A stretch of DNA of 64,000 nt from an uncultured SAR86 cluster bacterium (GCA_902517505.1 CABYCL010000001.1:3038-67037), one strand, 5' to 3'. Numbered from the stretch's first letter, positions 2 through 3,148 are shown. The notes: generated by a model not told the origin, from the letters alone. A program made the numbers and translations.

Positions 2-298
2 AATGTATCTGGAAAGACAAGATACCCTGTTGGCATTTCACCAATTATTGATCCTGTAACAGGTGAAGTACCAATAGATAGTAAAGGTAGAAGATCATAC
101 ACAACGGGTATGTCTTATTGCCCATCTCTTAAGAAATTTGTAGTTATGGGCTATCTACCTAAAGACATTGCTGTTCAAGGAAAGTCACTTCTAATCGAAT
201 ACTTTAATGAAGATGGTGATGGTTTGTATCCTATGACTGTTCAAATAGTTGGCAAAGGATCTCTTTATGATCCTACCAATGAAAGAGTTCGTGCTTAA
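2..298 (+). CDS. 3' end (partial) of GcvT-family aminomethyltransferase / dimethylglycine or sarcosine dehydrogenase-like protein
   Basis: Frame is open from the window edge (NVSGKTRYPVG...GRRSYTTGMSYCPSL...SLYDPTNERVRA). The C-terminal YDP..ERVR and the 'G Y.P' pattern are typical of the GcvT C-terminal barrel. Confidence 0.75.
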   Translation, partial: NVSGKTRYPVGISPIIDPVTGEVPIDSKGRRSYTTGMSYCPSLKKFVVMGYLPKDIAVQGKSLLIEYFNEDGDGLYPMTVQIVGKGSLYDPTNERVRA

Positions 299-311
299 CT
301 AATTAGACTTA

Positions 312-340
312 ATGACAACAGTTGTAAACTTGCCTATAAT
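312..340 (+). promoter_or_regulatory. sigma70 promoter of tRNA-Phe
   Basis: ATGACA (312-317), 17-bp spacer, TATAAT (335-340), 16 nt upstream of the tRNA. Confidence 0.7.
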
Positions 341-356
341 CCAAAGTTCAATTTAA

Positions 357-432
357 GCCCAGATAGCTCAGTTGGTAGAGCAAAGGACTGAAAATCCTTG
401 TGTCGGTGGTTCGATCCCACCTCTGGGCACCA
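357..432 (+). tRNA. tRNA-Phe (GAA)
   Basis: 76 nt: GCCCAGA/TCTGGGC acceptor stem, D arm AGCTCAGTTGGTAGAGC, anticodon loop CTGAAAA, T arm GGTTCGATCC, encoded CCA. Confidence 0.98.
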
Positions 433-434
433 TT
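387..434 (+). repeat. att core, copy 1 (3' half of tRNA-Phe), 48-bp direct repeat
   Basis: ACTGAAAATCCTTGTGTCGGTGGTTCGATCCCACCTCTGGGCACCATT is identical to 1528-1575. Confidence 0.95.
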
Positions 435-462
435 CTTACAGGGTTTTTCAAGATTTAAGTTT

Positions 463-529
463 TAACACACATTAACACACTGCTTTCTTTGAGATTTAGT
501 GTGTTAGATTTAACACACTTTTTAACACA
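463..529. repeat. Array of TAACACA(C) motifs (4 direct, 1 inverted), candidate recombinase arm-type sites
   Basis: TAACACAC at 463, 473 and 511; TAACACA at 523; inverted GTGTGTTA at 499. AGTGTGTTA-gatt-TAACACACT (498-519) is a perfect inverted repeat. Confidence 0.75.
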
Positions 530-559
530 TCATAATTTTGGCATACTTATAAATCATAT

Positions 560-1516
560 ATGAAAATCCAATACATCCTATCATCAGTCCTTTTAGTTTT
601 GCCTTTATACATAACGGGCAATGTTGAGCAAGACTATAAAAAAGATGCTCTTTGTGTCGAGGTATTTACAGAAGGAATTGGTTGGACTCATACTTTTGGT
701 GAAGGTAGATGCCCTGCTGGTTCAAATAAAGATGAGTATTCTCAAAAATTAAAAAAAATTGATTCAATCGTAGAAGTTGGCAATAGTGCTCAACAAGCAG
801 TTGTTGCTATAGGAGAAGTTCTTCGACAAAAAAGAATTATCGATAGTCTAAATAAAAATCAAATTATAAATAAATTTAGATTTTCCACTATAAATGAAAA
901 CAATAAGAACAAAATGGGTGAAGATTTTTTTAAGTTGCTTACGAAAAGAAATACCAAACTATCAGTTGGTATTGGTGAAGTAATAGTTTTTATTACAGAA
1001 GGAAGTATCCAAGATTGTTACATACCAAAATTTGAAACAAACTATCCATACAAAAGTGGTAAATGGTTTATTTTAAGCAATCAACCTGTATGTAATATAC
1101 CTGGAGAAAATTTAAAATATTTTTATCCGTTTTATTCTAATGAAGAACAACCATCATATAACTCCATTCATCCAGTTACATTTGACTACAAAAAAAAGAA
1201 AGACCTGTACAAAATTTGTGTAAAGGTTTCACAAAAAATAGCATGTAAAGATAAGGCAAAATTAGATATAGATTTTGAAGATTCTCAAGGTTTTGTCTAC
1301 AACATACAATCTCCAAAAAGAATGGTGATTGTCTCAAAAATTGAAAATGACTTAATTGAAGTTGTTGAATCCTATTATGATGAAGATTTAAAAGATTACA
1401 TAGATGCTCCCAGAAAGATCAATATTAATGATGAGAAAATCTTTACATCTTTTGATCAAAAGATTGAATTTATAGAAATACAAAATAATCAATTAATATA
1501 CAAAATTATTGATTAG
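560..1516 (+). CDS. Hypothetical exported protein (island cargo)
   Basis: 318-aa ORF with N-terminal signal-peptide-like segment and six Cys. No catalytic motif recognised. Confidence 0.8.
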   Translation: MKIQYILSSVLLVLPLYITGNVEQDYKKDALCVEVFTEGIGWTHTFGEGRCPAGSNKDEYSQKLKKIDSIVEVGNSAQQAVVAIGEVLRQKRIIDSLNKNQIINKFRFSTINENNKNKMGEDFFKLLTKRNTKLSVGIGEVIVFITEGSIQDCYIPKFETNYPYKSGKWFILSNQPVCNIPGENLKYFYPFYSNEEQPSYNSIHPVTFDYKKKKDLYKICVKVSQKIACKDKAKLDIDFEDSQGFVYNIQSPKRMVIVSKIENDLIEVVESYYDEDLKDYIDAPRKININDEKIFTSFDQKIEFIEIQNNQLIYKIID

Positions 1517-1527
1517 TCGATAATGCC

Positions 1528-1575
1528 ACTGAAAATCCTTGTGTCGGTGGTTCGATCCCACCTCTGGGCACCATT
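1528..1575 (+). repeat. att core, copy 2 (partial tRNA-Phe 3' end)
   Basis: Identical to 387-434; lacks the tRNA 5' half. Confidence 0.95.
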
Positions 1576-1659: not shown

Positions 1660-2139
1660 ATGAAATTAATATACCTATTAAACTTTCTCATTTCAGCAAA
1701 TATATATGCTGGTGTATTATTAAATGAAATATTAGTGGATGAATTTACTGATGAAGAATCTGTTGCATTAACCTTTACTGCAGATGAGGATTTTGAAGTT
1801 TTCCGAAAATGGGGTCAAATAGTTTGTAATGAAGGTTCTTTATTGCTGGGAATTGAAGATACAGATTCTTGGCATTTCGAAGATTACATTAAAGTGAAGT
1901 TTAGGTTTGATAAAAATCAGCCATTTGAATATCAATTAAATTTTGATACAGATTCCTCATTTGCTTATACATATTCTGAGGAAATAATATTCACAGTTCT
2001 TGATGAATTAAAAGGCTCTCGAAGCTTTTTAATCCAGTTAGAAGATGCTGATGTTCCAATGAGATTTACTGATATTTATGATTCTGAAGGAAAAGTGAAT
2101 AAATTTTTAGAAACTCTCCTTACAAAGTCTGATTGCTAA
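1660..2139 (+). CDS. Hypothetical exported acidic protein
   Basis: 159 aa with signal peptide ending ...ANIYA; D/E-rich mature part. Confidence 0.75.
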   Translation: MKLIYLLNFLISANIYAGVLLNEILVDEFTDEESVALTFTADEDFEVFRKWGQIVCNEGSLLLGIEDTDSWHFEDYIKVKFRFDKNQPFEYQLNFDTDSSFAYTYSEEIIFTVLDELKGSRSFLIQLEDADVPMRFTDIYDSEGKVNKFLETLLTKSDC

Positions 2140-2170: not shown

Positions 2171-3148
2171 ATGATTTCAAATTTTCAAAAACCAATTGAT
2201 TCTGGATTTCATGCTAAATCAAACTCAAACGATATAGTTCAAAACATTGATCTAGTTGGAAAAAAAGCAATTATAACTGGAGGTTATTCTGGAATTGGTT
2301 TGGAGACAACGAAAAGTTTGGTTGATGTAGGAGCTGAGGTTTTTATTCCAGCAAAAAGAACAGATGAAGCATCTTCAAATCTTGAGGGAATTGTTCCAAA
2401 AGATCATATTATTAAAATGGATTTAAGTGATCTTAATTCAGTTAAGTCTTTTGCAGATTCTTTTAAAGAATCAAATAATAAACTTGATTTACTCATTAAT
2501 AACGCAGGTATTATGGCTTGTCCTGAGACAAGAATTGGGAAAAACTGGGAGAGTCAATTTGCGGTAAATCATGTTGGTCATTTTTTATTAACTAAAGAAT
2601 TAATGCATTTGATGTCGAATGTTGAGGGAGCAAGATTTATTAGCTTATCATCTTCTGCACACTCTCTAACGCCAATTCTTTGGGATGATATTCATTTTGA
2701 AAATAATGCTTATGATAAATGGATGGCGTATGGACAATCAAAAACAGCTTCTTCCCTTATTGCTATAGAATTTAACAATAGAATGAAAGATAAAGGAGTA
2801 AAAGGATTTTCAGTTCATCCCGGTGGGATTATGACACCTCTTCAACGTCATCTTGAAAATCAAGAAATGGTTGCATTGGGATGGTTAAAAGAGGATGGAA
2901 GTCCTTCAGATCTTGCAAAGAATTTTTTTAAAACTACAAGCCAAGGTGCTGCAACAACTCTATGGTGTGCAACCAGTCCAAAATTAAATGATATTGGTGG
3001 AGTATTTTGTGAAGACTGTGATATAGCTAAAAGAAAGAATGATGTTGACGAATCTCTTCAAAGATATTTTGGCGTAGCAGATTGGGCAGTTGACTCAGAT
3101 GAGGCCTCAAAATTATGGGAAGTCACTGAAACAATGCTTTCATCGTGA
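2171..3148 (+). CDS. Short-chain dehydrogenase/reductase (retinol dehydrogenase/WWOX-like)
   Basis: TGGYSGIG, NNAGIMA, YGQSK catalytic YxxxK, VHPG. Confidence 0.92.
   Translation: MISNFQKPIDSGFHAKSNSNDIVQNIDLVGKKAIITGGYSGIGLETTKSLVDVGAEVFIPAKRTDEASSNLEGIVPKDHIIKMDLSDLNSVKSFADSFKESNNKLDLLINNAGIMACPETRIGKNWESQFAVNHVGHFLLTKELMHLMSNVEGARFISLSSSAHSLTPILWDDIHFENNAYDKWMAYGQSKTASSLIAIEFNNRMKDKGVKGFSVHPGGIMTPLQRHLENQEMVALGWLKEDGSPSDLAKNFFKTTSQGAATTLWCATSPKLNDIGGVFCEDCDIAKRKNDVDESLQRYFGVADWAVDSDEASKLWEVTETMLSS

Follow-up and report, generated by a model that had tools for sequence, protein, structure and literature searches.

We examined a 64,000-nt stretch of DNA (GCA_902517505.1, CABYCL010000001.1:3038-67037; hereafter the window), deposited as an uncultured SAR86 cluster bacterium, in which an intact tRNA-Phe(GAA) gene is followed by a small cassette with a single gene. 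The window has a G+C content of about 30%, and the genome it comes from (G000) is a 1.06-Mb assembly of 28 contigs that is 83% complete. The cassette consists, in order, of an attachment (att) core, a leader, one open reading frame (ORF) of secreted type and a second att core, with an insert of about 1.1 kb (Table 1). The two cores form a direct repeat of 48 nt, 100% identical and spaced by 1141 nt, and a 25-mer from the core occurs twice in the window versus zero times in 100 shuffles. The tRNA-Phe gene is the sole tRNA found by ARAGORN in the window, and a scan of positions 1-2400 with Rfam returned nothing besides this tRNA above threshold; among the 27 ARAGORN tRNAs of the assembly, the duplicated 3' 25-mer belongs to tRNA-Phe only. 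The first-pass annotation of this DNA had described the perfect 48-bp repeat, the single gene between its copies and the stop codon 11 bp before the distal repeat, and was right in every detail.

The repeated block begins at 387 (tRNA position 31), where the 5' strand of the anticodon stem has its last base, and spans the anticodon loop, the T arm, the 3' strand of the acceptor stem and the CCA, plus TT. The anticodon stem-loop itself is made up of AAGGA (383-387), the loop CTGAAAA (388-394) and TCCTT (395-399). The insert has the intact tRNA gene on one side and, on the other, a direct repeat of that gene's 3' part, the arrangement that identifies an element targeting a tRNA, and the block of identity starts in the anticodon stem-loop, where it offers a symmetric core with a 7-nt overlap at the presumed cleavage points. 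After integration, the 3' part of tRNA-Phe from 387 onward would be element-derived (attL), and the distal core would be the displaced original 3' half.

The leader, of which about 110 nt are conserved, contains five motifs of 8-9 nt: TTAACACA is present exactly four times (462-469, 472-479, 510-517 and 522-529), and the fifth, at 499-506, is its inverted form GTGTGTTA. All four exact copies of TTAACACA in the window fall in this leader, within 68 nt; their total is not above chance (shuffle mean 3.2), but the clustering is striking. The ORF that follows has no match in Pfam or PHROG. It belongs to an orphan family with conserved Cys residues, whose relatives amount to six clusters in 5.8 billion proteins; the five besides its own are 30-63% identical to it and all lie on short contigs. 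Among the 266 genomes of the order, the cargo gene is present in one, the window's own. G141 was considered as a second carrier and rejected, since its match (E 4e-4 over 67 residues) is too weak. A model of the protein made with AlphaFold2 from six sequences has a mean pLDDT (predicted local distance difference test) of 42. The signal-like N-terminus, read by eye, suggests that the product is a surface or secreted protein. The cassette encodes no integrase of its own, as the first-pass annotation had claimed, and it has neither structural, replication nor packaging genes nor any PHROG match that would mark a prophage or a phage satellite.

Table 1. Features of the tRNA-Phe locus, in coordinates of the window.
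Feature	Position	Strand	Basis or remark
Left chromosomal flank, 3' end of a GCV_T-domain gene	2..298	+	867-881 aa in relatives
Promoter-like site 5' of tRNA-Phe, ATGACA-17-TATAAT, 11/12	312..340	+	Consensus match only
tRNA-Phe(GAA), intact	357..432	+	ARAGORN; Rfam tRNA score 72.9 bits
att core, proximal copy, 48 nt	387..434	+	Repeat search
Cassette leader, 125 nt	435..559	+	Motif repeats; conserved in 18 leaders
AGGGTTT box in leader	440-446	+	Sequence reading
-10-like TGGCATACT in leader	539-547	+	12 nt 5' of ATG
Cargo ORF, 318 aa, signal-peptide-like N-terminus	560..1516	+	Only long ORF between cores
Spacer, stop codon to distal core, 11 nt	1517..1527	+	Without arm-type motif
att core, distal copy (attR core), 48 nt	1528..1575	+	Repeat search
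ORF159, secreted-type	1660..2139	+	Between distal core and SDR gene
Right chromosomal flank, short-chain dehydrogenase (SDR)	2171..3148	+	Adjoins tRNA in empty-site relatives

Independent support for the cassette came from unitigs of public runs from three other studies (X1, X2 and X4), which run from inside one core copy to inside the other. The X1 unitig covers 412-1556 with one difference, the X2 unitig covers 501-1556 with none, and two X4 unitigs cover 410-1175 and 1169-1556 with two differences. The left-flank contigs listed for the same runs are much more divergent (in X2, for example, 11 of 128 and 19 of 197 letters differ). Positions 1601-2400 are nearly without cover in all three runs, and we draw no inference from this.

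The same core recurs at tRNA-Phe in relatives of the window's genome. In a first draw of genomes, the 46-nt core was found at up to 3 mismatches in 57 of 61 relatives, several of which had two or three copies; in the whole family, a match is present in 99 of 139 genomes, with two or three copies in 32 of these 99. In the two sets together, copies lie 698-9533 nt apart. In all 12 of the multi-copy loci that were fetched from relatives, the full tRNA comes first and the extra copies follow it. The first base of the distal copies in these loci is the one seen in the window (ACTGAAAA, in one case TCTGAAAA), and to the left of that base they match the tRNA for 0-8 further nt. Within the genus, all 11 distal copies are identical to the tRNA over 46 of 46 nt. 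The DNA between the copies varies from genome to genome, as the first-pass annotation had predicted: Pfam matches identify a type I restriction-modification system in G019, a type III-like pair in G029, a methylase-specificity fusion with a helicase-nuclease in G050, a helicase with two methylases in G001 and C5 methylases in G006 and G041, and further cargo consists of small hypothetical proteins.

Empty sites were surveyed in 17 loci of the genus. The SDR gene that forms the right flank in the window lies 32-74 nt after the tRNA in five of them (G007, G031, G023, G022 and G025), and G005 has the order tRNA-ORF159-SDR, which is the arrangement of the window without the cassette. In the remaining loci, the tRNA is followed directly by a hydrolase gene (1), by other genes (5) or by nothing recognised (3), or the locus ends after 68 nt (1) or is multi-copy (1, G015). 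In addition, one contig in run X6 joins position 433 to position 1617. Empty-site alleles thus exist in relatives, and the possibility raised in the first-pass annotation, that all relatives carry the same gene with no empty site, does not hold for a gene found in one of 266 genomes.

ORF159 is variable among relatives, being present in G029 and G005 and missing from others. Aligned along its whole length, it shares 28-30% identity with the cargo of L110 and L127, two cassettes with a TAACACA leader, and it has neither leader motifs nor a core of its own. On this comparison, ORF159 is probably an older, fossil cassette that has lost its leader motifs and core. A cassette with a 154-aa gene is the outermost one in G006, G015 and G024. 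At the G015 locus (L034 4028-6415), the 154-aa gene of the second cassette is preceded by a second, diverged copy of the SDR gene (325 aa) and by the N-terminal 92 aa of the hydrolase; the two look like flank DNA taken up from another genome. We also noted two small ORFs without Pfam matches, of 109 aa and about 130 aa, that recur near the right end of several elements (L034, L035, L038, L039, L040, L013 and L024), and a membrane-like ORF of 126-132 aa in L040 and L041. These recurrent small ORFs may be backbone genes of a larger element type.

The build of the cassette is repeated with unrelated cargo. The tandem leader motif occurs once each in 20 of the 266 genomes of the order, and in seven of them (G000, G012, G148, G152, G076, G083 and G047) it stands beside tRNA-Phe; the other 13 have it beside tRNA-Ile(GAT) (2) or 5' of mraZ (11, all of genus g14). 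The genomes contain six small tRNA-Phe cassettes with 652-1201 nt between cores, each consisting of the core, a leader with four or five TAACACA motifs and one or two ORFs on the + strand whose stop codon lies 2-11 nt before the distal core. The N-termini of these ORFs look signal-like by eye, and the cargo is different in every case except for a related pair (G076 and G083, about 79% identical). The two loci with the motif at tRNA-Ile (L059 in G119 and L075 in G191) have a leader with TTAACACAC repeats directly after the tRNA, and no repeat of the tRNA-Ile 3' end was found within the 1.5 kb examined; they may be related elements specific to a different core.

A metagenome scan for the core-leader junction returned 32 contigs. 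The complete build is present in 12 of them, with ORFs of 151-426 aa and a gap from stop codon to core of 1-38 nt; four have the leader and a distal core but no ORF of at least 45 aa, five have a different leader and minus-strand lipoprotein-like ORFs, and 11 end before the distal core. The leader follows a full tRNA in 12 contigs and a partial copy, inside an array, in seven; 13 are too short to tell. One contig (L113) holds two TAACACA cassettes in tandem. Core copies are equal to their own tRNA in 12 of the 14 comparable cases. Eighteen leaders align over about 100 conserved nt ahead of unrelated ORFs, with a GGCATAAT box 7-9 nt 5' of the ATG, and the likeness ends at the ORF. Such a regular and recurrent build around unrelated ORFs argues for a functional unit rather than random decay, and together with the lack of any integrase remnant in the unit it speaks against the decayed prophage that the first-pass annotation had raised as an alternative.

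Elements of other types use the same tRNA-Phe core and have repeats of their own (GTGAACAG, GTGCACA, GTACACA, TTGTCCCCA and ACGAACCTAGA) with a period of 10-12 nt. Larger element types have repeated motifs at both ends, and several of the other-type elements share a right end that finishes in TCGAGTCAAGA before the core. Arrays at tRNA-Phe mix these arm types, and the tandem arrays that the first-pass annotation had expected are present. Two metagenome contigs, L107 and L125, are identical in their shared part, which comprises a 655-nt cassette, 1500 nt downstream and about 66 nt upstream of the core; only L125 has a 2415-nt element with GTGAACAG arms between the tRNA and this cassette. The 2415-nt element encodes HIT, HNH and a 221-aa ORF and has no integrase. 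In a single background, then, an element that lacks an integrase was either gained or lost right beside the tRNA; together with the outermost position of the 154-aa cassette, this gives an array order that fits proximal insertion.

We also examined where an integrase for these units might be encoded. At tRNA-Phe of G047, a genome of the same order but a different family, stands a 4.2-kb element whose parts are, in order, a TAACACA leader, a 382-aa ORF, an N4/N6 methylase, an MvaI/BcnI endonuclease, a 166-aa ORF, three TAACACA motifs and the core. The SAM-like domains found at the N-terminus of phage integrases are recognised in the 382-aa ORF. Its family comprises 104 clusters at E ≤ 1e-5, which are 36-99% identical and mostly about 386 aa long, and 17 aligned sequences all have R223, K257, R332, H333 and Y365; on our reading, these residues would be the catalytic set of a tyrosine recombinase. 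The leader of the G047 element aligns with the leaders of the small cassettes of G076 and G083, which belong to the same genus as G047. The PF00589 profile misses the G047 integrase (G047 has one match), and a profile of the G047 family was therefore built. In the window's genome, PF00589 has two matches, both Xer-sized (about 300 aa) and elsewhere in the genome, and the G047-family profile found no catalytic domain. Integrases are nearly absent from the genomes of the order. The first-pass annotation had pointed to an integrase acting on tRNA-Phe, in the host genome or in phages. This part of its proposal is borne out by the relative G047, with its integrase-bearing tRNA-Phe element and homologous leader; however, no such enzyme was found in the window's genome or in GenBank phages.

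Several other matches came to light in these searches. A GltD-like ORF of 550 aa, outside the window (G000 C6:42058-43710) and divergent from a gltB-like gene, has about 80 N-terminal residues that resemble the N-terminal domain of the G047 integrase (domain E 1e-10), and two GTCATAC copies lie just 5' of it. Similar N-terminal matches are found in ORFs of about 550-579 aa in four genomes of the genus, in ORFs of about 1250 aa in g14 and in ORFs of about 270 aa in 18 of 30 g4 genomes. A third PF00589 match is present in G006 (L184, C3), as a 205-aa ORF with the catalytic domain only (Pfam E 4.5e-20), and in G031 (L185, C16), as a 191-aa open frame; both are small recombinases on other contigs with no tRNA within 3.5 kb.

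In GenBank phages, the core with its leader matched only tRNA-Phe-like pieces, in 26 records, and the exact 46-nt core has no match in IMG/VR. A 28-nt part of the core found 10 IMG/VR loci, which were set aside because each is either a phage tRNA array or an att site of a host with higher GC and none is SAR11-like. A search of genome contigs with the integrase alignment gave 40 loci of 23-41% identity, likewise set aside, as nearly all are from Betaproteobacteria or other non-SAR11 bacteria and so say nothing about a SAR11 context. Arm-like motifs were found at 48 IMG/VR loci, none of which has the tRNA-Phe core or a relative of the integrase. Three IMG/VR contigs of 11.8-12.3 kb (L188/L189, L194/L195 and L207/L208) have TTAACACAC in tandem near both ends, within about 120 nt of them and on opposite strands, like inverted terminal repeats. 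These three viral contigs have neither the tRNA-Phe core nor an integrase relative.

The locus is a tRNA-Phe insertion hotspot of SAR11-type bacteria, and the cassette was made by site-specific recombination at the anticodon loop. We consider it fairly probable that the 1.1-kb unit is a non-autonomous cassette, resembling both a cis-mobilizable element (CIME) and an integron cassette, that an integrase supplied by another source inserted at the anticodon loop. Judging from sequence features, the integrase would act in trans on a circular intermediate, with the leader motifs as its binding sites. The mobile unit would be the att core, the leader and one ORF. A tyrosine integrase that the cassette does not encode would bind the TTAACACA repeats of the leader as arm-type sites, the two strands of the anticodon stem (AAGGA and TCCTT) would serve as core-type sites, and strand exchange would take place across the 7-nt anticodon loop. 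On insertion, the core of the cassette would restore tRNA-Phe, and the previous 3' half would end up on the distal side; cassettes arriving afterwards would enter at the tRNA and move older ones outward, which would give rise to arrays. The -10-like box just 5' of the ATG would let each cassette bring its own expression signal. Cassettes might be lost by recombination between core copies or might decay in place, as ORF159 may have done. More tentatively, we suggest the possibility that SAR11 bacteria run a distributed, integron-like cassette system without a resident recombinase, in which the rare integrases of a few cells or elements insert units at the tRNA-Phe anticodon loop. In such a system the units would be single ORFs of 0.5-1.2 kb, each with its own promoter and an att site formed by the tRNA-Phe 3' half and a one-sided arm.

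Several observations weigh against a cassette inserted in trans. Lambda-type integrases need sites on both arms. The five putative arm-type copies in the window are all on the leader side, and no motif copies occur in the last 120-130 nt before the distal core. The right side of the six small genome cassettes is likewise free of motif copies, whereas G047 and the larger element types have them on both sides. With one-sided motifs, the cassette may be unable to recombine on its own. The polymorphism between L107 and L125 concerns a larger two-armed element and not a small cassette. The public unitigs break at the core, and no circular or excised form was seen in them. Full-length integrases of the G047 type are rare, being present in two of the 266 genomes (G047 and G120, 35% identical), and the G120 relative lies at the start of a contig with no tRNA within 3.2 kb. 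The G047 integrase has no match in GenBank phages, and IMG/VR yielded none with the single protein and one remote relative (27%) with the alignment.

A further difficulty is that the leader motif might serve the host as an operator and not be an arm site. In the window's genome, four GTGTG copies at a 10-nt period lie 5' of mraZ (contig C26, L179 1340-1395), and eleven genomes of genus g14 (L060-L066, L068 and L070-L072) have TTAACACACTTTTACACAC at the same place. These mraZ upstream repeats have the same core word and period as the leader, which may therefore mimic or share a host operator.

The alternative that survives best, though we regard it as rather unlikely, is that the cassette is an immobile relic of an integrase-bearing island like that of G047, trimmed by genome streamlining. 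Deletion would have removed the integrase, the right arm and other DNA and left a promoter, one useful gene and a copy of the core, which would have spread only vertically or by homologous recombination through conserved flanks. The missing right-arm motifs and the near absence of integrases from these genomes fit such a history, as do the four metagenome cassettes with leader and distal core but no ORF and the resemblance of ORF159 to a further-decayed cassette. A SAR11 population study also favours, in the text available to us, homologous replacement at recurrent sites (10.64898/2026.10.07.757358). The 154-aa cassette is 99.3% identical between G006 and G024 and its flanks 94.0% and 96.6%, a modest difference in the same direction. 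However, across the six genome and 12 metagenome cassettes, unrelated ORFs start about 120 nt after the CCA and end 1-38 nt before a mostly intact core, and such regular ORF ends are not expected of independent deletions. The distal cores are almost always equal to the tRNA, which is unexpected for unused DNA in a streamlined genome, and the tandem TAACACA cassettes of L113 and the mixture of arm types in arrays also argue against trimming.

We think it improbable that no integrase was ever involved and that a duplicated tRNA 3' half was merely exchanged by RecA-type swaps between the 46-48-nt cores and their flanks. Perfect identity over 48 nt could support rare homologous exchange, and no integrase was found in the window's genome. 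However, the constant start of the distal copy in the 12 multi-copy loci and the window is the boundary expected of a tyrosine integrase that targets a tRNA, the motifs repeated beside the core are specific to the element type, and in the sibling element of G047 a leader of this kind is immediately followed by a tyrosine recombinase gene. Least probable by far is an assembly artefact, also considered in the first-pass annotation, in which a mis-join or a collapsed repeat would have produced the second tRNA half. The draft genome is in 28 contigs and metagenome contigs often break at the att core, but unitigs of three other studies cross the cassette from core to core, and the same architecture recurs both in metagenome contigs that contain the two cores and in 32 of the 139 genomes of the family.

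Around the cassette, promoter-like sites are no more numerous in the region than in shuffled sequence, which bears on the site listed 5' of the tRNA in Table 1, and a terminator scan found none at the distal core.

The cassette can be compared with several systems of tRNA-associated elements. In the accessible text of the respective papers, SAR11 gMED islands are said to carry partial tRNA repeats (PMC11796062), and the additive flexible islands of Alteromonas to have tRNA repeats with tRNA-Phe among the most used targets (PMC4898812). Like these additive islands, the tRNA-Phe locus has strain-specific content; unlike them as described there, it has a minimal single-ORF unit, a leader with motifs, motif subfamilies and an integrase-bearing sibling. 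The tRNAs used by SAR11 islands are not named in the portion of PMC11796062 available to us. Partial tRNA repeats in SAR11 islands were known already; a minimal build with one ORF, leader families defined by their motifs and a sibling with an integrase are absent from the accounts available to us.

CIMEs are described, in the available part of one source, as att-bounded elements that have lost or lack integration and transfer genes, and that lie in tandem with related elements at a tRNA 3' end, movable only by the recombinase of a related element (PMC5704250). The units described here resemble them: they are bounded by att cores, have no integration or transfer genes and share their site with related integrase-bearing elements, on whose recombinase they would likewise depend for movement. 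CIMEs are, however, decayed integrative and conjugative or integrative and mobilizable elements of Firmicutes that keep a full attL and attR, according to the same part of that source (PMC5704250), whereas the units here are 0.5-1.2 kb long with one ORF and one-sided motifs, in a regular build that is unlike decay, and no conjugation genes were seen in the elements examined at tRNA-Phe. Tycheposons of Prochlorococcus, as far as the available text describes them, sit at island tRNAs flanked by partial tRNAs, and they share with our locus a streamlined marine host and tandem elements; new ones push older ones inward, and remnants are scattered (10.1101/2020.12.28.424599). That text (10.1101/2020.12.28.424599) also has them carrying their own recombinase and a replication module along with cargo; the cassette has neither. 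Xer-dependent modules (IMEX or pdif modules) are flanked by dif-like XerC/XerD sites of 28 nt; at our locus it is the tRNA 3' half that is repeated, and the genome's only PF00589 matches are the size of XerC/D.

The likeness to integron cassettes is one of analogy and not of membership. Integron cassettes have a single ORF in one orientation with the recombination site directly after it, they form arrays in which the newest stands next to the insertion point, and the recombinase is encoded elsewhere. Here, by contrast, there is no resident IntI or attI platform, nor a Pc promoter beside the array, and the array starts at a tRNA. A constant tRNA half replaces the variable attC hairpin that follows each ORF in an integron, and each unit has a promoter-like leader where integron cassettes have no promoter.

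A genomic study entitled 'Pelagibacter, resolved' finds tRNAs for Phe and His conserved at the origin-proximal edge of a universal hypervariable region, and puts forward a model in which cargo is deposited by phages that integrate at the tRNA; in the text we had, the evidence is indirect, namely a GC gradient and position (10.64898/2026.04.03.716430). The same text contains the term 'tRNA-Phe' zero times and describes no att repeats, arm motifs or junctions (10.64898/2026.04.03.716430). Unlike in that model, the junctions are seen here and no phage genes are involved. Among the publications found that pair Pelagibacter with tRNA-Phe, none is on SAR11 by its title and the start of its abstract.

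SAR11 bacteria are said, in the parts of three sources available to us, to lack mobile elements and yet to have a very large pangenome (10.64898/2026.04.03.716430, 10.64898/2026.10.07.757358 and PMC11796062). The locus described here bears on how single genes enter these genomes, as it shows the junctions at base resolution. With a fixed crossover point, a motif-bearing leader and a candidate integrase family, the general model of tRNA insertion becomes testable with defined substrates. Secreted proteins and restriction-modification systems turn over at the tRNA-Phe gene, a point of relevance to phage-host dynamics. If the distributed cassette system that we tentatively suggest is real, it would mean that the ocean's most abundant bacteria build arrays of secreted proteins and restriction-modification systems at this tRNA.

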